DNA of 64,000 nucleotides from an uncultured Nitrososphaerota archaeon (GTDB lineage Archaea; Thermoproteota; Nitrososphaeria; Conexivisphaerales; DTJL01). The stretch covers positions 1-64,000 of the forward strand of contig CAWJIE010000002.1 in assembly GCA_963842885.1 (NCBI GenBank). Direction: 5' to 3'. How positions within the stretch are numbered: position 1 is the stretch's first letter; each line of letters opens with the position of its first letter. The notes under the pieces were generated by a model, which made no database searches, had not been told where the DNA came from, and worked only from the letters and a program-made list of their open reading frames with translations. Position numbers and translations under genes: made by a program. This document shows positions 15,563 to 48,803 of this stretch, piece by piece.

Positions 15563-15577
15563 TCGCAGGTCCAAGCC
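15563..15577 (+). repeat. Core D (TCGCAGGTCCAAGCC), copy 1 of 13
   Basis: Exact 15-mer. Confidence 0.95.
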
Positions 15578-15604
15578 CACGTTCAGGATTACCGTATACG
15601 AACC

Positions 15605-15955
15605 CTAGGGCGATGTCGGAAGGTAGACAACCGTCGCACCAGCCACCCCGACTATCTTGACATCGTAAACGCTCGACGACACTACACAATCGAATATGGG
15701 ATGGGATGGTATGGTTGGCGGTTCGGACGGGTTATAACCCACCGCGAGCCAGACCCCGTCGCAGGCATTGGGCACGTACAGGAAGTAGACGCCCTTCGAG
15801 TCGTTTGAGGCCGCGATGACGTTGTATACCGTGGCGTTGGCAGGACCCCGGATAGATGAGGGGATGGCTACTACTGTAACCTGAGGAGGGCTTCCGGCGA
15901 GTGAGCCGTTCACAGAAGGCTGGCCGACTGCAATCCAGGCCAGAACCGAGAGCAA
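15605..15955 (-). CDS. Hypothetical secreted protein
   Basis: Hydrophobic N-terminus; start uncertain. Confidence 0.5.
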   Translation of the reverse strand: MLSVLAWIAVGQPSVNGSLAGSPPQVTVVAIPSSIRGPANATVYNVIAASNDSKGVYFLYVPNACDGVWLAVGYNPSEPPTIPSHPIFDCVVSSSVYDVKIVGVAGATVVYLPTSP

Positions 15956-16104
15956 GAGGTAAGGCCACTGGAGTGGTGGAGCCGTCGAGTTGTAGAGTTA
16001 GGCGTAGACCTTCGTCACGCCGTAGGCAAGATAGAGCAAAGACTGGATTGAGTTAGATGGCGACGCGTGCAAGAGATGCACCGCCACCGCGGAGTACATC
16101 TGAA

Positions 16105-16167
16105 GGTTCTGTGACGTCTTCGGTTGCTGTCTACAGTGGCGCCATCGCAGAACGACCGACAACGACA
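16105..16167 (+). repeat. Module E hairpin repeat, copy 1
   Basis: Matches 22864-22926; GTTCTG...CAGAAC inverted ends. Confidence 0.8.
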
Positions 16168-16252
16168 CAGAAGCCTGTCCTAGTTGACGCCGTCTATCTC
16201 TCCCGGCAAAGCGACTCGATCGCGGACAACGGAGACGCCGAGATGGCTGGCG

Positions 16253-16831
16253 CTATCGGGCGGCGTCTTCCGAGCCGTATCCAGCTTCCTTCGAAAGGAG
16301 GCCCTCCACATTCTCCTCCTTCGCCCTCCTCCGAAGGTAATCGATGTCCAATCGGTCCACGAAGCCATGGAAGAGGGCCGAAGCCTGCTCGGCGTCACGT
16401 TCGCTCTTCCAGAACTTCGCCGCCGCCAGCCTGTCGATTATCAGGTCCTCGACCCCGACGACCCTCACCTCGTAGGGTCCGACTTCGATGATGCGGGCCT
16501 TTTCCGTCCTGGACGGGTAGGACCCCACTATGTGGACGGCCACCGCGAGCCTCTCGTTGAGCCAGACCATCCCCTCCCGTACGAAGCCCATCTGGGCCAG
16601 GACCTCCTCGGTCGATTCGCGGTCCGTTGTGGTGATGTCGATGTCCCCGGTGGTGTACTGACCCGCCGTATAGGTCTCCACGGCCTGCCCTCCGACCAGG
16701 AAGACGGAACCTCCGCGCCTTGAAAGCCGGCTTGAGATGTACCCGATGAGCAGCATCTTCCTCTTCAGCTCGTTCGGCTCCTTTCTCAGCTTTGATACAA
16801 TCTCCTTCGGACCCCAGAATCGTCTCTTCAT
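16253..16831 (-). CDS. Nucleotidyltransferase (DUF6036/AbiEii-like), putative toxin
   Basis: VFLVGGQAVETYT...TTGDIDI; VEDLIIDRL. Confidence 0.75.
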   Translation of the reverse strand: MKRRFWGPKEIVSKLRKEPNELKRKMLLIGYISSRLSRRGGSVFLVGGQAVETYTAGQYTTGDIDITTTDRESTEEVLAQMGFVREGMVWLNERLAVAVHIVGSYPSRTEKARIIEVGPYEVRVVGVEDLIIDRLAAAKFWKSERDAEQASALFHGFVDRLDIDYLRRRAKEENVEGLLSKEAGYGSEDAAR

Positions 16832-16877
16832 TCCATCCTTGGCAGGGCGTCCTGCGGACCTTGGGCTCGTGCGGAGA

Positions 16878-17288
16878 TCACCTCATGCGATAGGTCGATT
16901 CTCCGACCTCCTCGAACATCTCCGCGAACCTGGCGCGAGCGACCTTGGCGAGCGCGGAGAGCTCTCCTTCGACCCTGGGGAGGCTCCCAATGGAGACCCG
17001 GCGCCTTCCCTCCCTCGTCCTGAGCGAGACGGCGAACTGCCGGCGCCTGGCCTCAAGGGCCTCCGCGAAGGTGAGGGGGATCCTCCCTATCTCGTCGTTC
17101 ACCTTCCTCCAGTCCACCCGTCGAGACCGTTCGGCCGCCCTTCTGACATCTTCGGGGACGCCGGAGGCTAGCTTCGGGAGGGGCCCAAGGTAGCAGAGGG
17201 TCTTCTGCCTTACCCGCCCTCCCTCCCTCACTCCTTCGACCAGGTAGGCGTACCTTCTCCCACCGATGCTCTTGACCCTCACGAACAT
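16878..17288 (-). CDS. Hypothetical protein with IS1634-transposase-like N-terminal motif; putative antitoxin
   Basis: MFVRVKSIGGRRYAYLVEGVREGGRVRQKTLCYLG; 136 aa, no DDE core. Confidence 0.6.
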   Translation of the reverse strand: MFVRVKSIGGRRYAYLVEGVREGGRVRQKTLCYLGPLPKLASGVPEDVRRAAERSRRVDWRKVNDEIGRIPLTFAEALEARRRQFAVSLRTREGRRRVSIGSLPRVEGELSALAKVARARFAEMFEEVGESTYRMR

Positions 17289-17404
17289 TAGGTGAAACAT
17301 TGGAGGCATCAGTATAATAGTGTTGTGCCTAAGAATGCCAAGGACAGGGTCGTCGAGGTCGGTACCGGACTCCCCCAGCATCAGCGGAATCGAGTCAGCT
17401 CATT

Positions 17405-17419
17405 TCGCAGGTCCAAGCC
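17405..17419 (+). repeat. Core D, copy 2
   Basis: Exact 15-mer. Confidence 0.95.
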
Positions 17420-17519
17420 TACATGTGAGCCCTACCCAAGAATCCCATGCCCCAGACGAATGTCTCTGAAACGACCTGGTTACGCTTTAATACTTTTGCC
17501 GACTCCATCTAATCTAGTA

Positions 17520-18029
17520 TTGGACAAGTACGAGCTCCGACTAATTCTATTGGCCTGTGCCGCGGTCTTGGTTACGGCAGCACTTATTTTTGGGCTGGGG
17601 TTGGTCAGCCCAACGTTTACTGATCTCAATCAGCCGCGTGAGACGCTGCTTATCGCCTCGAACGCCACACTGTTGGCCACTTGTCCTACTGACGGGACGC
17701 CTCCCTGCTGGTACATCAGCCTGTACGCTGCTAACTATGGCAATGTCGTGACCATCCTCAGTCAGATTCAGCTGAACGGGACTTCCTACATCCCCACCAA
17801 TGATTGGCCCATTACCTATCAGCTGAGCGAGTCGTCCAAGCAAGGCGTCGTCGTCGCTTCGCCCATATCTGTGCAGGTCAAGGTGGGACAGAACTTCTCG
17901 ACTCAGTTCTACCTGGACAGCTCGGGCGCTGCCGTGGGAGGAGAGAAGTTCACCAGTGGCCAACAGGTCGTCATTAATCTGCTGACCTCAGACGGAGATT
18001 CTTTTCCTTGCGAATTTACTTTGCCGTAA
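17520..18029 (+). CDS. Hypothetical secreted pilin-like beta-sandwich protein
   Basis: TTG after TTTAATAC TATA; N-terminal TM; N.G...I..I.LNG; FTSGQQVVINLLTSDG. Confidence 0.6.
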   Translation: MDKYELRLILLACAAVLVTAALIFGLGLVSPTFTDLNQPRETLLIASNATLLATCPTDGTPPCWYISLYAANYGNVVTILSQIQLNGTSYIPTNDWPITYQLSESSKQGVVVASPISVQVKVGQNFSTQFYLDSSGAAVGGEKFTSGQQVVINLLTSDGDSFPCEFTLP

Positions 18030-18071
18030 CGCCTCCCATCTCTTCTAAAGTCATGGCTTAACAGCCCATTT

Positions 18072-18086
18072 TCGCAGGTCCAAGCC
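18072..18086 (+). repeat. Core D, copy 3
   Basis: Exact 15-mer. Confidence 0.95.
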
Positions 18087-18195
18087 TACGTCCTTAGCAG
18101 CGTCTTACCATTTTCGTAGACTGAAGCAGGGGTCACTTGTCCCTGCCTGTCCACGAACGTGGTATTATATCTCCGAGCCAGCGTACCATGATATT

Positions 18196-18990
18196 ATGTC
18201 CGACGAGCCCGACGCTGCGAGCTTTGACAAGTCACCGGCGGAGCTGTTCGACGCATTAGGTCACCCCATTCGCATCAAGATGCTTCATGCCCTCGAAGAC
18301 GGCCCGTTAGGCTTCTCGGAGCTGAGGCGCAAGGTTGGTCTCGAAAGCAGCGGCCACCTTCAGTTCCACCTCGGGAAGCTTAGCGGCATGGTCAGAAGCG
18401 AACCAGATGGTAGCTATTCACTGACTGATGACGGGAAGGAGGCGCTGAGAGTTGTGTCCACCTCCAAGGGCACTGGCTCCGGAGAATCTCGCGACGACAG
18501 GAAGGTCCTCCTCAGCAGAACTATCCTGGCTGGCCTTGTCGCTGCGATGCTCCTACTGGCTGCAGTTGCTGTGGTTCAGGAATTCGAGGTTTCAGGCCAG
18601 CTAAGTCAGATCTCATCTCTTCAATCCCAGGTTTCCTCGTTGCAGGACCAACTGTATCACTACGTGATTCCCGATGACGTATGCGACAAGCTCGGGAGCG
18701 GCGACTGCTTCAAGGTACTCGCATCGCTGGTCATGGAGAACCCCAGGTTCATCACAGCCGAGAACGGCACCAACTATTCATATTATGGTCCTGGCGGCGA
18801 GGAATCTTCGATCATCAACGACTCGGTGGTTCGCACCATCAGCCTGGTCTTCAGTTCGAATCAGACGAACATGAATCTGTTCGCCTGGATCCCTCTGGGT
18901 GGAGGGATCGCTGGCTATGGAGGCTACTACGACATAGCGGATATGACCTTCTTCTTTTTCCCCTCCACCTTAAGCTCCCCTCCAACATGA
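18196..18990 (+). CDS. ArsR-type wHTH + TM + extracellular domain
   Basis: FDALGHPIRIKML...GFSELRRKVG..SSGHLQFHL; TM at about aa 110-127. Confidence 0.8.
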   Translation: MSDEPDAASFDKSPAELFDALGHPIRIKMLHALEDGPLGFSELRRKVGLESSGHLQFHLGKLSGMVRSEPDGSYSLTDDGKEALRVVSTSKGTGSGESRDDRKVLLSRTILAGLVAAMLLLAAVAVVQEFEVSGQLSQISSLQSQVSSLQDQLYHYVIPDDVCDKLGSGDCFKVLASLVMENPRFITAENGTNYSYYGPGGEESSIINDSVVRTISLVFSSNQTNMNLFAWIPLGGGIAGYGGYYDIADMTFFFFPSTLSSPPT

Positions 18991-19094
18991 GCTTCTGACC
19001 TAAAAGGACCAGATAAGCTCAGAGAGGACGGATGCGACTATCTGCCTGGTCCCACCGAAGTGATACCAATAGAGGGTTTTCTCCTCCAATCAAC

Positions 19095-19239
19095 CTATTG
19101 ATTTCAATAACTTAAAGATGATTAACCTATTTAGAGGTCGTCGTCGGTCAGGATTCCCGTCTTGGCCAGATGACAGGTCACAGGGAAGGCCCTGAAAGTA
19201 CAATTCTTGTTTGCCTAAGCTAGAGGTTGGGCAAACTTA
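19095..19239 (+). repeat. 145-bp composite A+B+C, copy 1
   Basis: Gapless match to 30803-30947 with 7 mismatches by hand count. Confidence 0.9.
19209..19236. repeat. Module C, dif-like 11-6-11 palindrome
   Basis: GTTTGCCTAAG-CTAGAG-GTTGGGCAAAC. Confidence 0.85.
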
Positions 19240-19531
19240 GAATCGTCCCAGCAAAACAATAAACAAACTTACTTTGCTATTAGACGGTTAATTCAGACAT
19301 ATCATTTGGCCGAACAGGTCTGCGACCATCTTGAACTATTCGAGTCCCTATCAGGAGCAGGTTTGGTTCTAGCCCTGGCGGCGGCTATGTCTCCATTTAT
19401 GCTGGGAAGGACCTTAAGTGGCCTCTCCGTTGCCATCAGAGCCTATTATGCAACCTTTTTGTCTAGGCCAATTGGAGTTGGTCTCTTGCCGAAGCAAAAG
19501 GATAAGATTACATCGCTCCTACATCTGGACC

Positions 19532-20188
19532 ATGGTCGATGGGCTTGTCGAAGTGTTCGTGGACGAGGCCGGTGACCTCGGCTTTGGCAGGCGGGCCACC
19601 CGATATTTCGTGGTGGCTTATGTGATCCCTTCCCAGCCCGACAGGGCCAGAGCGAACATCATCCATCTGATCAGGGCGTTGAGGCTTCACAACCGGGTAT
19701 CCATCAAGGAGTTCAAGCATAGCCGGGACTCGCCCAAGGTGCGCAGCAAGCTTCTTGAGACCATTGCGGCTTTGGATGCTAAGGTGGGGGTTGTAGTGGT
19801 CAACAAAGAGTCTGTTGAACTGGATCTCAGAGACAAGCCAGGGGTCCTTTACAACTATCTCTGTGCACATTACATCGTCTCAGGCCTGCTGAGTCTCCAT
19901 CCAAAGAAGGTCATAGTGAGGATGGATAGGAGGATGTCCGCGGAGGGCATCCAGAGTTTCAATCGATATTTCGCTAACAAGCTCTCTTGGAGGAGCATGG
20001 AGGCCGACCTGGCCGAGCCCGAAGTCGAAGTTCACCATGTTGACTCGGCCCGCGAGAAATGTATCCAGATAGCGGATTATGTCGCAGGGGCCTGTTTCAT
20101 GAAGTTCGAGCGCAATGATCCCCTGGAATACGACATGCTCAAGTCAAAGATCGTCTTCAATACAGGTTGGGGAATACAGAATTGGTGA
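19532..20188 (+). CDS. DUF3800 family (RNase H-like) protein
   Basis: VFVDEAGDLG...YFVVA...EFK...DS...CIQIADYVAG. Confidence 0.85.
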   Translation: MVDGLVEVFVDEAGDLGFGRRATRYFVVAYVIPSQPDRARANIIHLIRALRLHNRVSIKEFKHSRDSPKVRSKLLETIAALDAKVGVVVVNKESVELDLRDKPGVLYNYLCAHYIVSGLLSLHPKKVIVRMDRRMSAEGIQSFNRYFANKLSWRSMEADLAEPEVEVHHVDSAREKCIQIADYVAGACFMKFERNDPLEYDMLKSKIVFNTGWGIQNW

Positions 20189-20262
20189 GTCTTCCCCCCA
20201 ATCCCAGCCTGCATCCACAGGCATCATCTCAAGGGGAAGACCCCCGGTTGCCCGGGTTTTAC
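20189..20262 (-). ncRNA. Candidate structured RNA convergent on DUF3800
   Basis: Minus strand: CCCGG-GCAA-CCGGG (GNRA loop), then GTCTTCCCC...GGGGAAGAC stem extended by G-U pairs, enclosing GCCTG/CAGGC. Confidence 0.55.
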
Positions 20263-20526
20263 ACCAAGAATCCATATGAACTGGTTGTATTTCAGATTAA
20301 GTGAGCCCTTTCAAAGCGAAACATACCTCGAGGTCATTGTATGAGACGGTTAGAAGGTCAACTGTACTTCACATGAGACGCTTTGTATTCAAAAGTGCCT
20401 TTGTCTCAGTAGACTTGTGTTCGCTCGGCAGTGAGAAGTCTTCTGTTATGTTCCGTGCGCTTTAACTTGACCTTGGTTGGTCGTCGATGGCGACAGTAAA
20501 GGAACCAGCAGCGGCTGACGCTGGGA

Positions 20527-20940
20527 TCAACCTGTCGGACCGCCGCGGGGCGTAGCGTGGGTGAATGAGAGCGTGTGCTCGAAGACCCTTCTTCGGAACC
20601 TCTCGATGGCTTCTGCACGATATCCTTTCTCCCCCCAGCAGTGTTTCTCCTCAAGCACAAGCTCCCTGTAGTGTCCTGCCCAGAGGAGACGGAAAGCGGT
20701 CAGGATGGGACGCAGATGACCCTCTTCAAGTCGGCAGTCGCCTCCGGGCGGAGTCGACAGGAGGCGCATGGCGGCTGAAAGGTCCTCCCGCGTCAGGATG
20801 TCCCTCTGCCCAATCCTGTCGTCCACGTTCTTGAAAAGGGCCAATATCACCTGTCCAGCGCCGTCTTCCAGGTCGCGGTCATCGATGTCCTTGGCCACTC
20901 TGGTCAGTTCAGATCGGAAGTCCTCTAGTGTTGCGAGCAT
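20527..20940 (-). CDS. Hypothetical protein
   Basis: 137-aa ORF with GGAGG upstream; no recognised motif. Confidence 0.55.
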   Translation of the reverse strand: MLATLEDFRSELTRVAKDIDDRDLEDGAGQVILALFKNVDDRIGQRDILTREDLSAAMRLLSTPPGGDCRLEEGHLRPILTAFRLLWAGHYRELVLEEKHCWGEKGYRAEAIERFRRRVFEHTLSFTHATPRGGPTG

Positions 20941-21074
20941 TGAAGACTAGACCTCCCAGAGCATTCAAGAAAGCATGCGGGGTGGAGGGAGCTTCCTTAT
21001 CTTGGCCGTCGGCGTATCAGAGGGCAGCTACGGATTTAAGCCCAGGCCGACCGGCTCAGTGACAGGTCCGCTCG

Positions 21075-22829
21075 GTGAAGTTCTGTCCTCGATGCAACAA
21101 CCGCATGAAAGCCGTTCGCCCAGGCTCGTCCGTCTGCGTCAGATGCGGATACAGGGAAGACACGAAGAAGGCCGGAAAGGATTCCACGCTGGCAGGCAGC
21201 TTCCCATACGAGTCGATGAGGCCGCACCAGAAGGAGGTCATCGAACAGATAGGGGCGGCCCTGGGCTCGAAACGGTTCATAATACTCGAAGCGCCCGTGG
21301 GGTTCGGCAAGTCCGCCGTCGCGGCCACCTTCTGCAGACACTTGGCCTCGGCCCACGTGCTGACGTCGACGAAACAGCTGCAGGAGCAGTACGCCGCCGA
21401 CTTCGGCTTCCCTGTAGTCAAGGGGAGGTCCAACTTCCGGTGCCTGGTGCCCACGACCTCCGGGGCGTTCCTGCAGTGCGACAAGGGGAGGTGCAGGGCC
21501 GACTGGAAGCTCAAGGACTGCCCCCACTACCTCACCTTCGAAGAGTACGAGGAGCACAAGCTGGGAAGGTGCGGGGGTGATTCCAAGTGCGAGCGGCTCA
21601 AGGACGGTAGGCTCTGCCTCTACTACGACCAGAAGTGGTCCGGGTTCGATGCTCCCAGCACGGTCTACAACTACCCGTTCTTCTTCAGCGAGATGAAGCA
21701 CGCAGGGGACATACCACACCGACGCCTCCTCGTCTGCGACGAAGTCCACGACCTTGAGAAGCAGATAGTGAGCTTCGCATCCTTCGCCCTCGAGAGAAGC
21801 GCGCTACAGCCCTATCATGACAGGGTCAGGCACGGAGAGAAGCTCGTCATACCCGACATGGGCAGGGACAATCCGGCCTCCTGGCTGGACGTGCTCCTCC
21901 GCTTCAAGGAGGAGCTTGAGGAGTTCCTGGATTCAAGCCATGCAGGAGACGACGAACAGGGGAGGGTCGCCGTATGCATGGACATGGTCGACGCGATCAT
22001 GAGCTTCGCGGAGGACCTCAAGGCGAATCCCACTAACTGGGTGGTGAGCAGCCTGGAGAAGGACGGTGAAGGCTCTGTCGAAGAGGTCGGGTTCCAGCCG
22101 ATCCTCGTCGGCAAGTATACGGCACCCCTCTTCAGCGTGGCTGATTCCATACTCCTGATGTCAGCCACGGTCTTCTCGAAGGAGAGGCTGTGCGACGTGC
22201 TCGGAATAAGAGAGGAGGAGGCATGCTTCGTCCGAGTGTCCGAGTCGTCGTTTCCGGTGGAGAACAGGAAGATACGCGCCCTGAACGTGGCCCAGCTGAA
22301 CCAGGCGACCATGGAGGCTTCCCTTCCAATCATCTCGCGGGCGATCGACGAGATAATGAGCAATCACCCGGGAGAGAGGGGGGTGGTACACACCACCTCA
22401 TACAAACAGGTCAACTACATAATGGAGCATCTCTCGGAACCGAACAGGGATAGGCTGACTACAACCGAAGGGAACCCCGATAGGTCTGGACTCCTGCGAG
22501 GGCACGGCGTGAAGACCGGGTCTGTCTTGATCTCCCCGAGCCTCTTCCAAGGGGTGGACCTGAAGGACGAGCTGTCCCGGTTTCAGGTCATAGTCAAGGT
22601 TCCATACCCGGACCTTTCCGACAGGAGGACCGCGGTGTTGCTTCAGAGGAACCAGACCTGGTATGACTGGCAGACGGCGCTCCGGCTAGTGCAGACCTAC
22701 GGCAGGAGCGTAAGGAGCGAAACGGACTATGCGGTCACGTACGTGCTCGATTCGCACTTCATGAGTTTCCTTCGCATCCATCGAGACCTTTTCCCGGCAT
22801 ACTTCCTTGAAGCCCTGGTGGAACGATAA
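21075..22829 (+). CDS. DinG/XPD-type SF2 helicase with N-terminal Zn ribbon
   Basis: CPRC..CVRC; EAPVGFGKS; DEVH; MSAT; GVDL; QTYGRSVRS. Confidence 0.9.
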   Translation: MKFCPRCNNRMKAVRPGSSVCVRCGYREDTKKAGKDSTLAGSFPYESMRPHQKEVIEQIGAALGSKRFIILEAPVGFGKSAVAATFCRHLASAHVLTSTKQLQEQYAADFGFPVVKGRSNFRCLVPTTSGAFLQCDKGRCRADWKLKDCPHYLTFEEYEEHKLGRCGGDSKCERLKDGRLCLYYDQKWSGFDAPSTVYNYPFFFSEMKHAGDIPHRRLLVCDEVHDLEKQIVSFASFALERSALQPYHDRVRHGEKLVIPDMGRDNPASWLDVLLRFKEELEEFLDSSHAGDDEQGRVAVCMDMVDAIMSFAEDLKANPTNWVVSSLEKDGEGSVEEVGFQPILVGKYTAPLFSVADSILLMSATVFSKERLCDVLGIREEEACFVRVSESSFPVENRKIRALNVAQLNQATMEASLPIISRAIDEIMSNHPGERGVVHTTSYKQVNYIMEHLSEPNRDRLTTTEGNPDRSGLLRGHGVKTGSVLISPSLFQGVDLKDELSRFQVIVKVPYPDLSDRRTAVLLQRNQTWYDWQTALRLVQTYGRSVRSETDYAVTYVLDSHFMSFLRIHRDLFPAYFLEALVER

Positions 22830-22863
22830 AGCACATCGGAGATTGCAGACAGAAGGGCGATCC

Positions 22864-22926
22864 GGTTCTGGGACGTCTTCGGTTGCTGTCGGTACTGGCG
22901 CCATCGCAGAACAACCGACGACAACA
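22864..22926 (+). repeat. Module E, copy 2
   Basis: Matches 16105-16167. Confidence 0.8.
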
Positions 22927-22961
22927 TGGCCTAGCCACTCTAGGGGTTTCGCATATCGTCT

Positions 22962-22977
22962 TTCCAGCAGCAATAGA
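22962..22977 (+). repeat. Module F, copy 2
   Basis: TTCCAGCAGCAATAGA. Confidence 0.6.
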
Positions 22978-26577: not shown

Positions 26578-26602
26578 AGCGGTCTTGACGATATCATAGT
26601 AC

Positions 26603-42335: not shown

Positions 42336-42470
42336 GGCGCCGGCTCATCTTCCCTGTGGAGAGGACCCCACCGTGTTACCGTTAGGACGCGGACTTGCAA
42401 GCCATCGCAGCAGCTCCGGACAGCACCCCATGACCCGCCAATAATCTATTCACGCGTCAGCGGGACAACG

Positions 42471-42506
42471 TTTATAATTAGAGCATCTATGTACAATTGT
42501 ACATAG
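42471..42506 (+). promoter_or_regulatory. TATA box + perfect 20-bp palindromic operator
   Basis: TTTATAATTA at 42471; CTATGTACAATTGTACATAG at 42487-42506. Confidence 0.75.
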
Positions 42507-42520
42507 GAGATTAGTTCGCT

Positions 42521-43292
42521 GTGAACAGCACTCGAACCGGGGTCAGGAGGAACAGAAACGCCCTAGTGACAAGGGGCCTCATCGCAGCCGTCGAATCTCT
42601 CGAAAGGCGGGGCGTGGAGCCGACCTTCAGCGAGATCCTGGCCGATCTCAGGTCGAGCGGGATCCTCTCCAACCATAGGTCGTTGAGAACCTACCTTGAT
42701 TCGCTCGTGCTTTCGGGAATCCTGAAAGTGAAAAAGGAGGAAGCGAGGCGGAAGAACGTGAGGCCGAAGGAGATTCTATTCTCTCACCCACGGACGCCCC
42801 CATGTCGAAGCCGGAGACGGCGCTTTGCTCTTCCATGGGCTCAACTGGACCATCCCGGTGAAGTCCTCGATCAAGCTGATGACGGACGAAGAAGGGGTGG
42901 CGAGGGCCCGGCTCGTAGACGGGACACTGTATGCCTCCCTTGAGGACATGGTGGTTGCTAACCTGGCGGCGAAGAGGAGGGCCGCCCTCGAAAGGGCGCT
43001 CCCCCTGTGCGCGGCGCTCCTGGCCACGTGCAGCTTCGACCCAGTCTATCTGGACAGGAGGGCCAAAGAGATGGGCGTCGGAGGGCTGGTGAAGGAGCTG
43101 CTCGATGAAATAGGCTACATCGTGTCCTCCCCCAGACCAGAGGTCGAGGACATCAGGACCCTCTACGCCGTAAGGAGACGGCTCGGGTCCCTTCGCAGGA
43201 ACGTCGCCCTTCATGACCAGGAACCGCGCTGGGACCTGCTGTCGCCTCATGAGTTGGTGGATGTGGCCGGGAAGCAGCTGGGGTTGGAGTGA
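42521..43292 (+). CDS. wHTH-containing putative antitoxin, frameshifted near 42780
   Basis: PTFSEIL...SLRTYLDSL..SGIL; continues in ORF 42825-43292. Confidence 0.6.
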
Positions 43293-43978
43293 AGATGAAG
43301 CCCTCCCGCCCTCCCGCCAGAGTGTGGATAGGCGTCCTGGGCCGCATCCTGCCCGTCCTGTCGAGGGGAGAGGCCAACGACGTGGTGCTCTTCGGCTCTC
43401 AGGCCATGAGCGTCTACACTCCCAGGGCCCTGGCGAGCAAGGACATGGACCTCATCGTCCCGGGTATGACCCTTCGAGTCATGAGGGAGCTCTGCGACGA
43501 ACTCGCCAAGGTGGCGGTGGGGAGGCCCAGCTACGACTACCTTTCATCCGAGTACTCGGGGAGGGAGTATCCCATCTTCCATGTCTACTTCAGGCACGAC
43601 AGCGGGTATCCGATGGTCGTCGAAATCTTCCTGAACTTCCTGGGCTTCGAATCCAAGAGGCTTGCGCCCTTCCTCACCTTCAGGGAAAGGTGGGGGGCGA
43701 GGGTCCAGGTCCCGACGCCGGAGGCAATCATAGGAACGAGGTTGTCCTTCAGGCCCCCCGAGCGGATCACGCCCTTCAACGCGAGGAGGTTGTCACGTTT
43801 CATAACGGGGATGGGCAGGGGGGTCGACTGGGCTAAGGTGAACTCGTTCGTCGACGCCTTCGAGCTCAGGGCCGTAGCCACGGAGAACCTGCGGGCGCTT
43901 GCCTCAAAGCGAATCTTCATCGCCGGGACGTCCCATTTCCTCAAGGGGCAACCGGGAGACGCGCCGAACTCCGCATGA
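43289..43978 (+). CDS. Nucleotidyltransferase (DUF6036/AbiEii-like), putative toxin
   Basis: VLFGSQAM...SKDMDL...VPTPEAII; GTGA overlap with upstream gene. Confidence 0.7.
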   Translation: MKMKPSRPPARVWIGVLGRILPVLSRGEANDVVLFGSQAMSVYTPRALASKDMDLIVPGMTLRVMRELCDELAKVAVGRPSYDYLSSEYSGREYPIFHVYFRHDSGYPMVVEIFLNFLGFESKRLAPFLTFRERWGARVQVPTPEAIIGTRLSFRPPERITPFNARRLSRFITGMGRGVDWAKVNSFVDAFELRAVATENLRALASKRIFIAGTSHFLKGQPGDAPNSA

Positions 43979-44010
43979 CCGTTCGTTGCGGGTAGCCACG
44001 GGCCCGCCAC

Positions 44011-44505
44011 TTGTTGGCCCCATGGATAGCATTATGCATCGATGGGGTTAAATCCGACCTAGATTTCTGCGCTTGTGACATGGCAGCCACGCAGAGCGGG
44101 CTCCTAACCAGCCTGATAGAACTCCTGACGCCGACGGCAGCGCTCCTTACGATCGTCATCGAACTGTGGAACATGACGTCCGTAACCATAAGGCTCTTTT
44201 CGGTCATCGACCTCGTCATACTTGTCTTCGTAGCTCTCATCTGCTTCATGGAGCTGAAGTCTGAAAGGCTTGGAGACCGAGGCCTCAGCCTATCCGCGTT
44301 CTTCCTCCTGTGGCCCTTCCTCGTCCTTCTTGGTCTGGCGGTGGCTGCCCCGGTGATGTCGCTCCTGGGGATCGTCTTCATTCCCTGGAGGACGAATACG
44401 AGGGATTGGTGGGCGGGCATGGGGATCGCCTTGGCCGGGATAGTGGTGACCGGCCTGCTGGCCTGGAGGTTGGTCCTGCTGACCAAGCCGCGTCTTCGAA
44501 CCTGA
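44011..44505 (+). CDS. Hypothetical 4-TM protein; start uncertain
   Basis: Hydrophobic ORF. Confidence 0.55.
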   Translation: MLAPWIALCIDGVKSDLDFCACDMAATQSGLLTSLIELLTPTAALLTIVIELWNMTSVTIRLFSVIDLVILVFVALICFMELKSERLGDRGLSLSAFFLLWPFLVLLGLAVAAPVMSLLGIVFIPWRTNTRDWWAGMGIALAGIVVTGLLAWRLVLLTKPRLRT

Positions 44506-44569
44506 AATAGTGCTCCCACAACCCTGACCATGCTCCTCGATCGCGCTCGTGCTCTCACGTCGGACGCGG

Positions 44570-44649
44570 CGTGGCCAAGGTCGCATCCATCTGCACGAGG
44601 GCGCTGGGCGAAGGTCCGCTGCGGGTCTGAGCCCTCGGGACTACTGTGG
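44570..44649 (+). pseudogene. 3' remnant of a PAP2 phosphatase paralog
   Basis: VAKVASICTRALGEGPLRV* versus VAKVTSIFTRALGEGPLRL* at 52105-52165. Confidence 0.75.
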
Positions 44650-44779
44650 ACCCTCCGAACGATGTAAAGGGGCCACCCTGCGGCGGCGGCGGCCAACCTC
44701 GCCCGATGAGGATCCAGACGTCTTCGCCCCCCTCCCCAAAGCTCTAATAGAGTGAGCCCGCCAACGAGATGGGAAGGCC

Positions 44780-45001
44780 ATGTCGTCTGAATTCGAAAAG
44801 TTGGTGAAGAGGCTGGAGAAGCTGGAGACGAGAGTGCAGCTCGCGGAGGAGAAGCAGTCCGTGGCGGTGGAAGGGGCTCTCGGGGACGAGGAGACGAAGC
44901 TTAAGGCCGGGGAGAAGAAGAGGGTGGACCAGCTGGAGGCCAAGGTGAAAGAGCTGGAAGCGAAGCTAAAGGCCCTAGAAAAGAAGCGTGCGAAGAAGTA
45001 G
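44780..45001 (+). CDS. Small coiled-coil protein
   Basis: Heptad E/K/L pattern. Confidence 0.65.
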   Translation: MSSEFEKLVKRLEKLETRVQLAEEKQSVAVEGALGDEETKLKAGEKKRVDQLEAKVKELEAKLKALEKKRAKK

Positions 45002-45052
45002 GCCTCATCCCTTCCGGCAGGAAGCACGACGGCGGAACCATAACGAGACTAG

Positions 45053-45166
45053 GTTTGCCTAAGGAGCCACTTCAAGACCTAAAATGAATGACTAGTAGTG
45101 TTTGTCTAAGCTACAGCTTGGGCAAACTAGAAATCGGACCAGCCCATTTCTTCGCAGGTCCAAGCC
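45053..45166 (+). repeat. Half-site (45053) + module C (45100-45127) + core D, copy 11 (45152-45166)
   Basis: GTTTGCCTAAG 47 nt before GTTTGTCTAAG-CTACAG-CTTGGGCAAAC. Confidence 0.9.
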
Positions 45167-45211
45167 CACGCCCGCGCTAAACTTGGAACCAGTCACGGCC
45201 ACAAAACAGAT

Positions 45212-45469
45212 TCAAGGTGATTCCTCTTGGTCTTCTTTCTTGTTCAGCTCTTTGAACATCAGAGAATTGTAGTAGGCACCAAGGAGGCCTACAACTAGCC
45301 CACAACCGCCGATCAACAGGTCCAGTGGCAATACGAAGTAATGGGGAGAGAAGAGGTAGTATGTGACCAGGGGATATCCGATTGCGAGCAAGCAAAGCAC
45401 CACTCCGACGATACCCATTATGTTGTTCCGCCTAAAATGACGAACACGAGGATATCTCTCGGCCCCCAC
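45212..45469 (-). CDS. Small 2-TM hypothetical protein
   Basis: Only plausible ORF between D copies 11 and 12. Confidence 0.6.
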   Translation of the reverse strand: MGAERYPRVRHFRRNNIMGIVGVVLCLLAIGYPLVTYYLFSPHYFVLPLDLLIGGCGLVVGLLGAYYNSLMFKELNKKEDQEESP

Positions 45470-45523
45470 TACCGTAAACCCCCGGTGTCAAGAACCATCA
45501 CTATCCTAATGAGGCTTTCCAGT

Positions 45524-45590
45524 TCAATTATCAAATTGTTTTCAATAACATAGATATGAATAAGCCAGCCCGTTTTCGCAGGTCCAAGCC
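45524..45590 (+). repeat. Module A' + core D, copy 12 (45576-45590)
   Basis: TCAATTATCAAATTGTTTTCAATAACATAGATATGAA...TCGCAGGTCCAAGCC. Confidence 0.9.
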
Positions 45591-45755
45591 CCCAAGAATC
45601 CCATCCATAGACCCAGTTGGGTCCTAGTCCTCCCGCGCCCGCCCGCCCAAAGGGGACACCTCCGTTTCTCCGGTTCTCCCCCAAAGAGATCCTTTCCTGA
45701 CGGCAACCGCAAACTTATCGGTTTTGGAATACGCCCCCTTCCCATCTGCTTCCCA

Positions 45756-46451
45756 TCAGGCTTGCCCAAGCGCGTCAACAATAAGATGCCTTTCGGCCCG
45801 CCTGAGTTCAACGTCCAAAGTTGATGGGGCAAGACTGTGGATTCCGGCTAGTTGCTTGATGCTCGTCTTCTTTGGTATATCGAAGTAACCCATGCTGTAA
45901 GCAGTGGAGAGAGCTCTCCGCTGTTTCTCTGTCATCTTGTCCATTGACGACCTTGAGAGCCTCAGGTCTTCGAGTTCCACAATCCTGTAGGGCACTCCAA
46001 CCCGATCAACCATCTTGCAGAAGCGTCTTACTATCTTCGGATTTCCAAGATACGTGATTCTGAACCTCCCATTTCTGATTTCGTATGGTGGGATGAAATA
46101 TCCGCCTATCGCAAGGAAATCCAAGAAACTGGGGGAAGCCTTCTTGAGCTCAGGCTTGAACCTCGTGAAATATGTGAAGAGATTCCCTTTTTCGTGTCGA
46201 AGCATCTCGAAGAATAGTTTGCTGCTCGTCGTTTCGCGAATCAATTCCTCCAATCTGCTTGCCGGTTCGCGGAGTTTCACCCTGAATATGAACGCAACCT
46301 CGTCAGAGAGCTCAAGGAAGTAAAGCACCTCAAACCATTCGACTTTTAGGACTTTTAGGAGGGTCGCCTCGCGGAATTTGTCCAGGTCGTTCTCCGCAAA
46401 TTCGATCGTGAGCCGGCGCATCCATGTATGTAAGAAGGTCGCCCCTTCCAT
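45756..46451 (-). CDS. HTH_10 (Bat-type) transcriptional regulator
   Basis: MTEKQRRALSTAYSMGYFDIPK...LRRAE. Confidence 0.85.
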   Translation of the reverse strand: MEGATFLHTWMRRLTIEFAENDLDKFREATLLKVLKVEWFEVLYFLELSDEVAFIFRVKLREPASRLEELIRETTSSKLFFEMLRHEKGNLFTYFTRFKPELKKASPSFLDFLAIGGYFIPPYEIRNGRFRITYLGNPKIVRRFCKMVDRVGVPYRIVELEDLRLSRSSMDKMTEKQRRALSTAYSMGYFDIPKKTSIKQLAGIHSLAPSTLDVELRRAERHLIVDALGQA

Positions 46452-46528
46452 TTAAGGGTATAAAAGGATGGCGAATCTATTCGCATCAATGTTAAAACGC
46501 TATCATCACGAAATCAGTACGGGTTACG

Positions 46529-48124
46529 ATGTCAAGCAAGTATGATGTGGTTGTTGCCGGCGGCGGACAGCATGGGCTCATTACTGCGTGCTATCTAGCA
46601 AAGGCAGGGCTGAGCGTCTGTGTAGTGGAAAAGCTCGATGCGACGGGCGGAGGGCTCGTGACCAGGGAACTCAATGCGCCGGGATTCAAGCATGACATGG
46701 CCTCGGTTGCTCACATCTACATCCAGGCTAACCCTCTCCTTGTGAACGACGAGCTTGGACTCCTATCCAAGTATGGGCTCAAGTACATTGTCCCTACCGA
46801 ACCGGTGGTAGTAGTCTTCCCGGATGGAAGAGAGATGGTAATCTGGCGAGACGTCGATAAGACCTGTGAGTCTATCGCCCAGTTCAACAAGAAAGATGCT
46901 GAGGCTTACAGGAAGCTCTACGAATGGGCACGTCCAGGTTTGAATATGCTGATTGGTGGCATGTTTGTTCCACCCCCGCCCCTGTCAGGCATGATTTCGT
47001 TGCTCGAAGGGAGCGATTATGGGCGAGAGATGAAAAGAGGGTTGCTACTGAGCGCTTTGGATATCGCTAACGACTGGTTTGAAGGAGACGCAATAAAGAT
47101 CGCGATGCTCAGGCTCATATCTGAGCTATTGATGGCCCCGCAGACAAAGGGGACCGGACTGAACTTTTACCTCATGGTTCCCATGTTGCACGCTTACGGA
47201 TATGGGTTTGCGGAGGGAGGTGCACACGCACTCGCTGAAGCCCTGGAGCGTTGCCTCAAGGCGAATGGCGGAACGATCATGGTTAACAGTCCCATTAGGC
47301 GCTTCAAGATAGATCAGGGGAAGGCCACTGGTGTTGTATTGGAATCTGGCGAGGAGGTCCAAGCCAGCAAGCTCGTAGTCTCCAACCTAAACGTCAAGCA
47401 GATGTTTCTTGAGATGATTCCGACCGAGAATCTGCCTCCTGATGTGCCAGGGAAGGTTCGGCGGATTAAGCAAAGCGACTTCATGCCCTTCCATCAGTTA
47501 CTGGCACTGAACGAAGCGCCCAGGTTCGACACTGGCGGCATGGCCGATAGGGCCTCAGGTGTCTATCACATTTCCTCGTACAAGCTTGCAGATCTTTTGA
47601 GGGGATTCGACGACTATAGCTACGGAATCATGAATTCAGTAATGCCTTTGACCGTGTGTCAAACATTGTTTGATCCCACACGAGCGCCAAAGGGCAAGCA
47701 TACCGTGTATCTCCTTCACTTTGCCCCCGCCAGGCTGGCAGACGGAGGGCTTGAGGGATGGGATAAGATAAAGCAGAAGGCAGCTGATGACATCCTTGGG
47801 ACTGTACGCAGGCACGTCGTGAACCTGGATGACAAGAATATCGTAGGCAGAACAATATTGAGCCCGCTTGACTTCTACAAGTACAATCGTTCATGGTATG
47901 AAGGAGACTTCTGCCACTTTGGCAGCATGCTGGGCCAGCTCTTCGCGGACAGACCCCTCTCTGATTGGCCGCCCTTCAAGACCCCGATAGACAAGCTGTA
48001 CCTCACCGGTCCAAGCGCACCTGGGACTGGCGGCGGCGTAACTGGCGCAGCTGGAAGAGCCGCTGCCATGACCATCCTTCAAGACCTGGGCATTAGTTTC
48101 GACAAGGTAATCGCCGCCAAGTAG
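46529..48124 (+). CDS. FAD-dependent oxidoreductase, phytoene dehydrogenase-like
   Basis: DVVVAGGGQHGL, PGFKHD, DPTRAPKGKH, TPIDKLYL. Confidence 0.88.
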   Translation: MSSKYDVVVAGGGQHGLITACYLAKAGLSVCVVEKLDATGGGLVTRELNAPGFKHDMASVAHIYIQANPLLVNDELGLLSKYGLKYIVPTEPVVVVFPDGREMVIWRDVDKTCESIAQFNKKDAEAYRKLYEWARPGLNMLIGGMFVPPPPLSGMISLLEGSDYGREMKRGLLLSALDIANDWFEGDAIKIAMLRLISELLMAPQTKGTGLNFYLMVPMLHAYGYGFAEGGAHALAEALERCLKANGGTIMVNSPIRRFKIDQGKATGVVLESGEEVQASKLVVSNLNVKQMFLEMIPTENLPPDVPGKVRRIKQSDFMPFHQLLALNEAPRFDTGGMADRASGVYHISSYKLADLLRGFDDYSYGIMNSVMPLTVCQTLFDPTRAPKGKHTVYLLHFAPARLADGGLEGWDKIKQKAADDILGTVRRHVVNLDDKNIVGRTILSPLDFYKYNRSWYEGDFCHFGSMLGQLFADRPLSDWPPFKTPIDKLYLTGPSAPGTGGGVTGAAGRAAAMTILQDLGISFDKVIAAK

Positions 48125-48187
48125 CAAGATGTCACGATCTAGACAGGGGTTGTGACATGACTGCCTCCCCCTAGAAAGGCGACGGAC

Positions 48188-48445
48188 ATGAGCCCTGACA
48201 ATACTGCCGACCCCATGAGAATGACGGACATGCACGGGAACGCCGTGATAGAAATGAGGTCCATCGAACGGTGGGAAGACGCACTCGTGATCCAGGCAAA
48301 AGTGTACGGAACGATGTCGATGACCCTATACATCAAGCCTGAAGAGATGTGGAGAAGCAGAAAACTCCTGTCTTGGTCAGTGGTGCTGTATCTCCCGAGG
48401 ATGATCATCAGGGGCTGGTGGCGCTCCAGAAAGAAATCGAAGTAG
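48188..48445 (+). CDS. Small hypothetical partner of the oxidoreductase
   Basis: Co-oriented 85-aa ORF (LVIQAKVYGTMSM...PEE). Confidence 0.6.
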   Translation: MSPDNTADPMRMTDMHGNAVIEMRSIERWEDALVIQAKVYGTMSMTLYIKPEEMWRSRKLLSWSVVLYLPRMIIRGWWRSRKKSK

Positions 48446-48788
48446 CGGGGCACCGAGATGGTATTGGCTTCTCAATTCCGGCTTCACGACCTTATCCGCA
48501 AGCATGTTCGCACCAAGCGCGTCTTCACGTACCTTCCCTCAGGTAGCACAGGCAAGGTGATAGAGGTCTACGGCAGACGAGGCATGCCTCTAGGCATCAG
48601 TGTGAGTAGGACGGTGTCGCCAAGCTTCGTTCTCTTGGGCTTCGGAGGGGTCTATTGTCAAGGCCACATAGGGGTGACTGAACCATTCTTCAACTCTACC
48701 ACCTACTCCTATCTATTCACTTGGAACTCCTCTGACCTTTCTCAGTTTTGCCACGGACTCTACTATCATTGAGAGAGTCAGCCCATCT

Positions 48789-48803
48789 TCGCAGGTCCAA
48801 GCC
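48789..48803 (+). repeat. Core D, copy 13
   Basis: GAGTCAGCCCATCTTCGCAGGTCCAAGCCCACG. Confidence 0.95.

Follow-up and report, generated by a model that had tools for sequence, protein, structure and literature searches.

What is the 15-nt sequence TCGCAGGTCCAAGCC that recurs between the genes of an archaeal genomic island, and do gene blocks begin and end at it? The window (the whole stretch analyzed, 64,000 nt of contig CAWJIE010000002.1) belongs to a 2.03-Mb Conexivisphaerales (Nitrososphaerota) genome (G000), and the original prediction was that it holds a gene-cassette array delimited by this sequence, the core of a site-specific capture system with a recombinase encoded outside the window. 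All 13 exact copies named in that prediction are present, on the + strand and, by crude gene calls, intergenic (Table 1); 0.20 copies are expected by chance, and none of 100 shuffles reached 14 matches. Genome-wide, 41 of 44 exact copies are intergenic by the same calls. Positions 1–15562, the part of 42% G+C that had been read as bacterial, contain no copy. The predicted wider consensus was likewise recovered: the site spans ~35 nt and consists of gtcaGCCCAT, 0–3 extra T/C, the core as invariant center, and YACGTCC (cACGTcc), with AGCCCA directly repeated ~20 nt apart (about two helical turns). Invariance across species is limited to the 15 nt of the core, and the neighboring bases of the site drift; thus, recognition by a protein or a guide fits better than mere homology. 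Four degenerate copies had also been proposed, of which two hold, at 30760 (+ strand, two mismatches) and at 30965 (+ strand, decayed, inside a unit 80% identical to the 26632–26717 unit); at 34102 and 50726, a site profile found no match at E ≤ 50, and both positions are the start of a 680-nt duplication (34103–34782 and 50727–51406).

Modules A–E recur between cores, and other units carry unique sequence. Module B is a 28-bp palindrome with 11-6-11 geometry; core-D-core units, with module D between cores, lack any gene, and module A+B pairs without a core lie at 19071–19275. Cassettes hold 0–3 genes, mostly for surface or membrane proteins, transporters, TA, and defense, in keeping with the predicted cargo of membrane or secreted orphans, transporters, and TA pairs. 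Because the 34–45 kb stretch is backbone-like (62–63% G+C), 15563–48803 is not one uniform cassette array.

Table 1. Repeat sites and the DNA between them in the window (position 1 is the first letter of the window).
Feature	Position	Core	Strand	Remarks
Site 1	15551–15585	15563–15577	+	Left box variant GTGGCTCCCCATTT
Cassette	15578–17404			116-aa secreted orphan, DUF6036 nucleotidyltransferase, 167-aa basic protein; 16104–17420 ~99% identical in another strain, with different neighbors there
Site 2	17393–17427	17405–17419	+	Breakpoint in near-identical strain and versus G001:C20
Cassette	17420–18071			Single 169-aa membrane or secreted orphan
Site 3	18060–18094	18072–18086	+	Start of homology to G003:C22
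Multi-gene block	18087–23927			DUF7347 HTH, coreless A+B modules, DUF3800, Rad3-like helicase, membrane orphans
Site 4	23915–23951	23928–23942	+	Module A precedes
Cassette	23943–26698		+	828-aa surface protein, signal peptide, C-terminal anchor, no Pfam family
Site 5 + upstream module B	26632–26721	26699–26713	+	Left end of ABC-transporter cassette
ABC-transporter cassette	26714–28843		-	ABC-2 permease and ABC ATPase; 88% identical block in G002:C112, enclosed by two cores in each genome, neighbors differ
Site 6 + upstream module C	28800–28867	28844–28858	+	Right end of ABC-transporter cassette
Mini-cassette, 410 nt	28859–29268		-	86-aa membrane protein
Site 7	29239–29285	29269–29283	+	Breakpoint in near-identical strain
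Cassette	29284–30759		-	427-aa polytopic membrane protein; 95% identical in G002:C96; paralogues in another G000 array
Decayed site	30748–30983	variant TCGCAGCCCCAAGCC, 30760–30774	+	Then full module A, module B, decayed core near 30965
Cassette	30984–32811		-	PMT_2 glycosyltransferase, 464 aa
Site 8 + upstream module B	32745–32830	32812–32826	+	
Cassette	32827–33480		+	181-aa membrane-anchored orphan
Site 9 + upstream module A	33427–33502	33481–33495	+	
Cassette	33496–34000		+	83-aa orphan; 94–96% identical in two G002 contigs
Site 10	33989–34084	34001–34015	+	Then full module A (34021–34084); homology to G002:C69 and G002:C121 stops at core
Backbone-like stretch between two sites	34103–45080			62–63% G+C; MFS transporter, AbiEii/AbiEi, thermosome, M48 peptidase, others; atypical for a cassette
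Site 11 + upstream module B	45081–45173	45152–45166	+	
Mini-cassette	45167–45508		-	68-aa membrane protein
Site 12 + upstream module A	45509–45592	45576–45590	+	
Block	45591–48774			HTH_10 regulator, FAD oxidoreductase, two small orphans
Site 13	48775–48810	48789–48803	+	

The attC sites of integrons are imperfect palindromes of 57–141 nt, of which a single strand folds into a hairpin, with an R'' box (RYYYAAC) and an R' box (GTTRRRY) in which crossover takes place. DNA folding of 60 of the present sites (170 nt each) on both strands gave mean z-scores against shuffles of +0.06 and -0.06, with inconsistent pairing of the core. A hairpin (module B), ~20 nt upstream of the core, is present in ~15% of sites; words resembling RYYYAAC/GTTRRRY occur only inside some module B copies, away from the breakpoint, and TCGCAGGTCCAAGCC contains no GTTRRRY. 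The site is asymmetric and polar, and convincing dyad symmetry is absent. The core can also be read as CGCAGG-TCCAAG-CCYACG, an imperfect dyad flanking a 6-bp spacer. The covariance models of Rfam 15 had no match in the whole window at gathering score and three weak matches in 15–35 kb at E ≤ 5, none of them at a site, and ARAGORN found no tRNA or tmRNA gene in the window. The sites are thus unlike attC and are not IS ends, as predicted; an even spread of sites and conserved gene order without breakpoints, which were tested for as well, were not found either.

Only part of one genus carries the site system. G000 has 70 copies with up to two mismatches (versus three for a control pattern), in 23 runs or singletons on eight contigs, none of these ~23 loci being at a tRNA gene. 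Three of four congeneric species hold 34–78 copies, and the fourth (G004) has few, decayed sites; the exact core is absent from all 36 genomes of other genera, families, or orders. The extended pattern was found on 20 stretches of genome contigs, which belong without exception to two named Conexivisphaerales/Nitrososphaerota MAGs, and on 57 metagenome stretches, with no viral contigs.

Sites take their polarity from the locus and not from the genes. Neighboring sites no more than 6 kb apart are co-oriented in 146 of 152 pairs (43/45 in G000, 53/56 at G001–G003 loci, and 50/51 at metagenome loci), and all four combinations of neighboring gene orientation relative to the site are present (14, 12, 11, and 6 cases), the upstream gene being co-oriented in 26 cases and opposed in 17. 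Median spacing is 0.7–1.1 kb, some units are 170–430 nt long or gene-free, and arrays reach 10 sites in 9.5 kb. Of the predicted gene-cassette array, polarity and core-bounded exchange stand; a single array or platform does not, given ~70 sites at ~23 loci.

Homology between loci breaks at the core. Among 202 unique sites, at loci fetched for comparison because they bear the core, 38 pairs share one flank only (17 the left, 21 the right), and per-position identity switches between -1 and about +5 of the core; all 20 pairs between G000 and another source share a single flank, none both. Of the homology-block ends less than 3 kb from a core, 14 of 44 lie within 20 nt of it, versus 1.8% expected under uniform placement. 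Three blocks (C2:26692–28864, C8:4315–4848, and C8:5500–6108) are enclosed by two cores in each of the genomes compared but have differing neighbors, and variants of the T-run left of the core go with the left cassette, those of YACG with the right. A ~98–99% identical strain, seen in contigs of two metagenome runs on peat from a single study, has different content between cores 17405 and 29269: window sequence 16104–17420 (eight differences) is followed by 1372 nt of other sequence and then by the window from 29266 (to 30448 in one run, to 30777 in the other), with the switches exactly at the two cores. These alignments support the core as the point of gene-block exchange. With only ~35 nt common to the sites, homologous recombination would place its crossovers there as well.

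Neither circular cassettes nor clean excision junctions were seen, and the joints that were listed rest on only 23–35 nt on the shorter side. Several homologous blocks leave a gap of 34–56 nt before the core, or are bounded by a core on one side only. The island has in part been rearranged without core sites: the M48 peptidase gene is found in three different contexts without cores (G000 and G003), and at C5:159–163 kb a 3.96-kb array has taken the place of the 5' end of a gene, at a position where two relatives show the genes side by side and lack a core. Little DNA synteny with relatives is seen in core-free parts of the window too; some of the island's plasticity is thus independent of the site.

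In the window, the rest of G000, and the 57 metagenome stretches, we found no recombinase with a link to the sites, so that of the predicted capture system it is exchange at the core, and not an enzyme encoded beyond the window, that was recovered. PF00589 has no match in the window; its nearest full-length match to any G000 array is 11 kb off (C4:323310–324515 versus 335466), and a 181-aa integrase fragment (C3:20410–20952) is flanked by sites of a loose run on C3. One of the 57 stretches (274 kb of site-bearing DNA in all) encodes a tyrosine recombinase. Tyrosine recombinases of the four site-bearing genomes are mutually 20–43% identical, with no clear shared orthologue; integrase genes or fragments lie inside some arrays (G003:C59, G003:C35, and the C3 fragment), and array integrases are mutually 22–26% identical; and one integrase family, with 96% conservation between G000 and G002, also occurs widely in genera without the site. 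G004 has an integrase fragment and no PF00589 match. In the tRNA-Glu T-arm, 12 of the 15 bases of TCGCGGGTCCAAATC equal the core, and tRNA-Glu and tRNA-Gly genes are adjoined by integrases; no array begins at a tRNA gene. IS110-family elements adjoin cores at four of five loci, and module D carries IS110 insertions; attC and REP are also targets of IS110-type elements. The tRNA-linked tyrosine integrases and the IS110-type DEDD recombinases are weak candidates for the recombinase.

These data are best read as a new cassette system, integron-like or NIME-like, with a putative trans-acting recombinase, and we rate the probability of this reading slightly above even. By this reading, the ~35-nt site would mark off small cassettes in the flexible genome of a subgroup of one Conexivisphaerales genus, each cassette starting with the YACGTCC side and bringing its own variable 3' segment (modules A–E or unique sequence) and left box. 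Strand exchange would occur inside the 15-mer, whereby every site of an array would be a hybrid of two neighboring cassettes, and serial insertion of units would keep the sites of a locus co-oriented. Following the example of attC clusters without an integrase, we infer conservative site-specific recombination by a sequence-specific trans enzyme encoded elsewhere, perhaps by a mobile element or by a portion of the genome missing from the assembly; because no recombinase is tied to the sites, this dedicated enzyme is deduced rather than observed. The further proposal of a new archaeal gene-capture system, with an asymmetric 15-nt core and a recombinase of a new family or mode, is tentative and somewhat doubtful; its enzyme might follow a guide RNA, as IS110 does with its bridge RNAs, or be an integrase of the tRNA type that works in trans.

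The main rival is homologous recombination at the repeat, by which a conserved intergenic repeat, as in the neisserial intergenic mosaic elements (NIME), would provide a short identity patch where the ordinary machinery exchanges neighboring genes with incoming or paralogous DNA, with no dedicated recombinase. We regard it as unlikely, although the layout parallels the Neisseria dRS3/RS arrays in the available part of their description (PMC1797815), and it would account for the recurring modules, the gene-free core-D-core units, the IS110 copies in module D, the lack of a linked recombinase, and crossovers within the ~35 nt that alone are shared. Against it, 15 nt are invariant across species while adjacent bases drift, whereas homologous recombination favors longer identity; the co-orientation of sites follows from serial site-specific insertion and is not required by homologous recombination; and the Neisseria authors too proposed a site-specific recombinase for dRS3 (PMC1797815). 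On this view, a nucleoid or accessory protein might bind the core.

The sites might instead be scars of many elements, each with its own tyrosine integrase, that used the same tRNA-derived att and later lost their integrases. Re-use of att in tandem arrays is known in archaea, and thaumarchaeal att repeats are short, as far as the available part of PMC6563490 describes them; the T-arm resemblance, the integrase genes and fragments in some arrays, and the state of G004, with few decayed sites and an integrase fragment, agree with such an origin. We nevertheless consider it improbable: the units, with a median spacing of ~1 kb, are far smaller than integrated elements and densely packed, none of the loci is at a tRNA gene, one integrase in 274 kb is few, and the array integrases diverge widely from one another. 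Least probable is a regulatory or structural signal (operator, insulator, terminator, or small-RNA element) at which breakpoints are incidental. Intergenic position, AGCCCA repeats two helical turns apart, and adjoining surface-protein genes, which are often co-regulated, would suit such a signal, but site orientation is independent of both neighboring genes, polarity follows the locus, no Rfam match or fold beyond shuffles was found at a site, and homology switches exactly at the core in the 38 pairs.

Among known systems, the pdif modules of Acinetobacter plasmids are gene modules bounded by short recombination sites, with the recombinase encoded elsewhere; pdif sites are dyad-symmetric XerC/XerD sites in alternating orientation. 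The present units are similarly bounded, and module B has a dif-like 11-6-11 geometry, but the sites are co-oriented and asymmetric, and breakpoints are at the core, not in module B. REP/BIME with RAYT was rejected, since the core is not palindromic and the matches to PF01797, the Y1 (HUH) transposase (one each in G000 and G002, none in G001, G003, and G004) each lie ~1 kb from a PF07282 (TnpB) match, in IS200/IS605 layout. Casposon or Cas1 arrays, with their 14–15-bp target-site duplications, were also rejected, with PF01867 (Cas1) in none of the five genomes of the genus and no terminal inverted repeats found flanking the units.

In the archaeal elements of PMC6563490, re-use of one att site produces tandem arrays; as in the part of that account available, short att-like direct repeats flank successive units here, and the core resembles the tRNA T-arm, the usual archaeal integration target. 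Unlike those elements, the present units are 10–50 times smaller and nearly all without integrases, and dozens of sites per genome are spread over many loci, none in a tRNA gene, with the 15-mer kept across species. In Neisseria, dRS3 is a 20-bp inverted repeat (ATTCCC-N8-GGGAAT) that flanks RS modules of 50–150 nt and is targeted by IS110-family recombinases (PMC1797815). To the extent of that source, both systems place a short conserved repeat between many families of short modules, in strain-variable intergenic arrays beside surface-protein genes that are proposed recombination substrates. The mosaic of modules is thus common to both, but the site here is asymmetric and polar, is no dRS3 inverted repeat and shares no sequence similarity with it; whole genes rather than mostly non-coding modules lie between the sites, and the host is an archaeon.

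Integron cassette arrays, above all sedentary chromosomal integrons and CALINs (attC clusters without an integrase), are also among the known systems nearest to this one, with archaeal examples in Ghaly et al. (2022; PMC9668308). Integrons have one platform per replicon and mostly single, co-oriented, promoterless ORFs. The differences are that the present sites lack the R''/L''-L'/R' imperfect palindrome, RYYYAAC/GTTRRRY ends at the crossover, and any folding signal; that no IntI or attI platform was found, and ~23 dispersed loci replace one array; that genes point both ways, with several or none in some units; and that the recombination core is an invariant 15-nt sequence, not a structure. 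The likenesses, within the available part of that source, are the gene-site-gene layout with ~1-kb units and co-oriented sites; cassettes with their own variable site region and conserved ends, so that array sites are two-cassette hybrids; greater similarity of sites within than between lineages; accessory cargo (TA, transporters, and surface proteins); recombinases mostly not beside the array; and repeats targeted by IS110/IS1111-type elements. If the tentative proposal of a new gene-capture system is true, polar arrays at many loci would move surface-protein, transporter, and defense genes between soil and peat species, as an independently evolved functional counterpart of integrons.

The 13 exact copies of the 15-nt core TCGCAGGTCCAAGCC in the window, which the original prediction had placed on the plus strand only, were all recovered at their positions and on that strand (Table), compared with 0.2 matches expected by chance; none of 100 dinucleotide-preserving shuffles of the window reached 14. 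Aligned copies have only ~35 nt in common, comprising a left box (gtcaGCCCAT), 0–3 extra T/C residues, the 15-mer, and cACGTcc; the core is invariant, the flanking bases of the site drift, and the AGCCCA repetition noticed in the wider consensus does recur, about two helical turns apart. Among the four supposed degenerate copies, one is a genuine core with two mismatches, while those at 34102 and 50726 mark instead the start of a 680-nt direct duplication.

The source genome (G000; 2.03 Mb, 58% G+C, 11 contigs) contains 44 exact copies (30 on the plus and 14 on the minus strand) and 70 copies with ≤2 mismatches, vs. three for a control pattern. These form 23 runs or singletons on eight contigs, mostly within stretches of slightly lower G+C, so that the single array originally proposed did not hold. 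Among 40 relatives, the exact core is found only in three of the four other species of the same genus (34, 78, and 76 copies with ≤2 mismatches); the fourth, G004, has only ~11 decayed copies (control, four), and the 36 genomes belonging to other genera, families, or orders contain no exact copy. The pattern of left box plus core matches 20 stretches in a species-representative collection, all from two MAGs titled Conexivisphaerales archaeon and Nitrososphaerota archaeon, as well as 57 metagenome stretches, with no matches in viral contigs. Module A, one of the repeats often found upstream of the core, is equally restricted (31 copies in G000, 21 in G002, 7 in G003, 1 in G001, and 0 in G004). 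Across genomes and metagenomes, this distribution indicates that the repeat is real, independent of any one assembly, specific to one clade, and archaeal, as had been predicted. Contigs often start or stop a few hundred bases or less from a site, including many short G002 contigs (Table), which suggests that assemblies break in the arrays, as expected if cassette content varies within the sampled populations.

Neighboring sites (≤6 kb apart) are co-oriented in 43 of 45 pairs in G000, in 53 of 56 in loci from G001–G003, and in 50 of 51 in non-redundant metagenome loci. The largest arrays have 10 sites in 9.5 kb, and spacing has a median of 0.7–1.1 kb (range 167–5967 nt). Orientation switches between loci (Table) and is unrelated to G+C skew along four contigs, by which replication-linked polarity was rejected.

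Compared with other species, the window between 14 and 34 kb is matched piecemeal, by pieces scattered over many contigs. An ABC-2 permease and ATPase block is 88% identical to its counterpart in G002; the homology starts at one core and stops just past the next, and the neighbors differ between the two genomes on both sides. T-run variants left of the core accompany the left block; the YACG side accompanies the right one. This places the exchange point inside the 15-mer. When the whole of G000 was compared by blastn with 39 core-containing loci, two further blocks proved to be core-bounded at both ends in both genomes (Table), and 14 of 44 homology-block ends (untruncated, and within 3 kb of a core) lay ≤20 nt from a core, vs. 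1.8% expected under uniform placement. Among 202 unique sites with ≥160 nt of flank, from G000, the three site-bearing congeners, and metagenomes, flanks are homologous on the left only in 17 pairs, on the right only in 21, and on both sides in 10, all of the latter being G002 loci paired with metagenome contigs; G000-to-other-source pairs are one-sided throughout (20/20). In this set, the changeover of position-wise identity, from linked to unlinked, falls in the interval −1 to about +5 of the core. Additionally, peat contigs from two metagenome runs of one study follow the window up to a core with eight differences, continue with 1372 nt of other sequence, and then resume the window (Table). 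Thus, a ~98–99% identical strain has different content between the cores at 17405 and 29269, both switches being at cores. Strain and species differences that end at the core, the test attached to the original prediction, therefore favor cassette exchange at the site. Further peat-metagenome joints with only 23–35 nt on the shorter side were left out of the evidence, and among the loci compared, which were chosen because they contain a core, there are no simple triples of the form A-core-B vs. A-core-Z-core-B.

Coordinates of sites and associated features (contig C2 carries the window; G000 unless stated)
Feature	Contig	Position	Strand	Remark
Exact cores, window	C2	15563, 17405, 18072, 23928, 26699, 28844, 29269, 32812, 33481, 34001, 45152, 45576, 48789	+	
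Core with two mismatches	C2	30760		
Low-G+C segment	C2	1-13300		No sites
DUF3800 gene	C2	19532-20188		
DUF3800-X RNA, weak match	C2	20183-20266	-	
ABC-2 permease + ATPase block	C2	26692-28864		G002:C112:2221-4391
Membrane-protein block, 427 aa	C2	29317-30704		G002:C96
Direct duplication, 680 nt	C2	34103-34782; 50727-51406		
Core-free region	C2	52-64 kb		
Matched by peat contigs, left	C2	16104-17420		Both runs
Matched by peat contigs, right	C2	29266-30448; 29266-30777		One run; other run
Orientation switch	C2	Up to 103895; from 104611	+; -	
Core-bounded blocks	C8	4315-4848; 5500-6108		
Locus L106, with cassette insertion of 3.96 kb	C5	155000-169000		
Inverted site pair	C3	179476; 189171	-; +	
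Sites near contig ends	C3; C9	25; 191		
IS110-family copies, ~1.3 kb	C3; C3; C7	1403-2709; 189224-190518; 18992-20293		
tRNA-Asp gene	C4	183690-183787		
Duplicated segment, 1.7 kb	C1; C3	3447-5142; 229833-231540		

Upstream sequence is unique at about half of the sites, and the rest carry recurring modules (A–E), every one of which belongs to the cassette (the gene block between cores) on its left. Module A (CAATTAACCTATTG-TTTTCAATAACAYAAAGATGA), with 32 copies in G000 in the survey of modules, is by our reading oriented like the nearest core and is either fused to left box and core or present in a longer form running into module D. Module B is a 28-bp 11-6-11 palindrome (GTTTGCCTAAGCTACAGGTTGGGCAAAC) in 43 distinct versions, the stem of which is kept with many G-T pairs; because double compensations are few despite the conserved stem, a hairpin structure is only putative. 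Modules C, D, and E are further recurring repeats near cores, and module D is also found directly after the core, so that some core-D-core units are without a gene. A coding role was rejected for modules A and D, which have no consistent opposite-strand ORF, and the varying length of the T-run means that no reading frame crosses the site. In addition to TA systems (ParE/RHH, DUF6036, and AbiE types), the cargo comprises ABC-2 transporter pairs, DUF3800, a Rad3-like helicase, a PMT_2 glycosyltransferase, regulators, and numerous orphans bearing a signal peptide or membrane anchor. Over all site-bearing loci, the commonest families are ABC-2 permeases, beta-propeller/Ig surface proteins, PAS histidine kinases, and cNMP-binding proteins. 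The DUF3800 gene directly adjoins a weak match to the Rfam DUF3800-X RNA (26.3 bits vs. a gathering score of 38.2; E 0.12).

The sites are not attC, as originally held: there is no RYYYAAC/GTTRRRY at the crossover, and the folding of 60 sites does not exceed that of shuffles on either strand (z ~0). Rfam gave no match at the sites (gathering score or E ≤ 5), and by ARAGORN the window contains no tRNA or tmRNA gene. Several enzyme classes were rejected: Cas1 is absent from all five genomes of the genus; Y1 transposases, with one IS200/IS605-type copy each in G000 and G002 only, fit no RAYT system; TnpB copies are not near sites; and the serine recombinase is a single gene in G000, absent from G001–G004 and so not common to the genus.

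Tyrosine recombinases are present in G000–G003, with none found in G004, and are 20–43% identical to one another; with no orthologue across the site-bearing genomes and none adjoining a G000 array, a cis-linked enzyme of this type was rejected. The 274 kb of site-bearing metagenome DNA encode one. In G002 (95% complete), the sole tyrosine recombinase lies directly after tRNA-Glu, with no core beside it, and is 96% identical to a truncated gene at the end of G000 contig C9; its family, however, is widespread in genera without the site. The T-arm of this tRNA-Glu (TCGCGGGTCCAAATC) matches the core at 12 of 15 positions. IS110-family elements adjoin cores at four of five loci. The three G000 copies are 92–95% identical (one with a broken gene) and are inserted in module D between TTCCAGCA and GCGACAGA, 15–50 nt from cores. 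Upstream of the transposase, their non-coding end has TGCTGGAA, which is the reverse complement of the 8 nt preceding the insertion point on the left, a pattern as expected of a bridge-RNA guide. Because these insertions hit module D and spare the core, and G001 and G003 yielded no IS110, an IS110 recombinase acting on the core was rejected.

The gene-capture reading of the original prediction is thus supported in part: the comparison of flanks and strains shows exchange at the core, but the recombinase and its recombination mode are putative. On balance, we favor site-specific recombination at the core by a candidate trans-acting enzyme. From its sequence, the core may be read as CGCAGG-TCCAAG-CCYACG, an imperfect dyad with a 6-bp spacer, like the sites of tyrosine recombinases. 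The islands are also rearranged without the site. The 427-aa membrane-protein block, 95% identical to its G002 counterpart, ends 34 and 56 nt before cores; the M48 peptidase gene has three contexts in three species, with cores absent in two; and the core-free end of the window likewise has little DNA synteny with relatives. At locus L106, G000 has a 3.96-kb cassette insertion with two cores, the bordering genes of which are adjacent in G003 and G002 with no core where the insertion is absent; in G000 the downstream gene, called pterin dehydratase-like on the strength of its translation and not of a family search, appears to have had its 5′ end replaced. Homologous recombination at a NIME-like repeat, by which copies of the repeat would themselves provide the homology for exchange, is a less probable explanation of the arrays and the main rival.

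Two further readings were considered. The sites could be scars of ordinary integrated elements, which we consider improbable. Two tyrosine recombinases are situated inside G003 arrays, one of them adjoining a DUF3987 gene, in surroundings that look like ordinary integrated elements. That the site is a regulatory signal seems very improbable. The cores are intergenic (13 of 13 in the window and 41 of 44 in G000, by our own codon-usage gene calls). The directions of the neighboring genes occur in all four combinations (14, 12, 11, and 6 in G000), on which ground a promoter or terminator was rejected. As to expression, the 15 runs listed as carrying matches included no RNA data set.

Further features of G000 were observed. 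The two inverted sites, 9.7 kb apart, both have module E (GAACGTACCTGTGAAATAAGG) upstream and could flank a segment capable of inversion. The copies of the 680-nt duplication (95–96% identical) enclose 16.6 kb with backbone-like genes (thermosome, M48 peptidase, and MFS) and three sites, and may result from duplication of a segment or insertion of a block. The window's initial ~13 kb (42% G+C vs. 58% for the genome) encode bacterial-type genes, several split into fragments (LivH/M-like permease pieces, ABC ATPase, Hydrolase_4, PQQ-propeller pieces, DegV, dCTP deaminase-like, and poly(A) polymerase-like), and are foreign DNA or else the product of a chimeric join where the contig begins. The tRNA-Asp gene (98 nt) has an extra stretch, probably an intron, that holds GGTCCAAGACCACG, matching the right half of the site at 13 of 14 bases. 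The duplicated 1.7-kb segment (97.9% identical) stops precisely where a tRNA-Gly gene has its 3′ end; in G003, an integrase follows the same tRNA. This pattern points to a hotspot of integration or to a strain-variant contig.

No published description of the site was found in the article texts searched, including text from a Conexivisphaerales preprint, and the 15-mer occurs in one unrelated paper. We group the system with cassette arrays in which short recombination sites link the units; a recognition mode or enzyme that proved new would set it apart as categorically new. To our knowledge, integrons are the only well-understood platforms for stockpiling and shuffling single-gene cassettes, and the arrays represent a second, apparently independent route to an integron-like layout, in non-ammonia-oxidizing peat Nitrososphaerota. 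Sequence, and not structure, defines the site, which is easy to search for and already marks ~240 cassette junctions (four genomes and the 57 metagenome stretches), so that the assembly and exchange of archaeal flexible islands of cell-surface and defense genes become testable, as does the enzyme behind them, which would be of interest as a recombination tool if it recognizes the 15-nt asymmetric core. The archaeal integrons known to date use the bacterial machinery, with canonical attC and IntI (PMC9668308). For Neisseria, dRS3 was proposed to be bound by a site-specific recombinase, with a phage IS110-like enzyme as the candidate, that promotes the exchange of adjacent surface-protein genes (PMC1797815), and tandem re-use of att sites is known for thaumarchaeal integrated elements (PMC6563490). 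In function, the nearest counterparts are integron cassette arrays or CALINs and, in Neisseria, the dRS3/RS mosaic arrays; the site works like these, without their defining features, and like the archaeal elements that re-use att sites in tandem.
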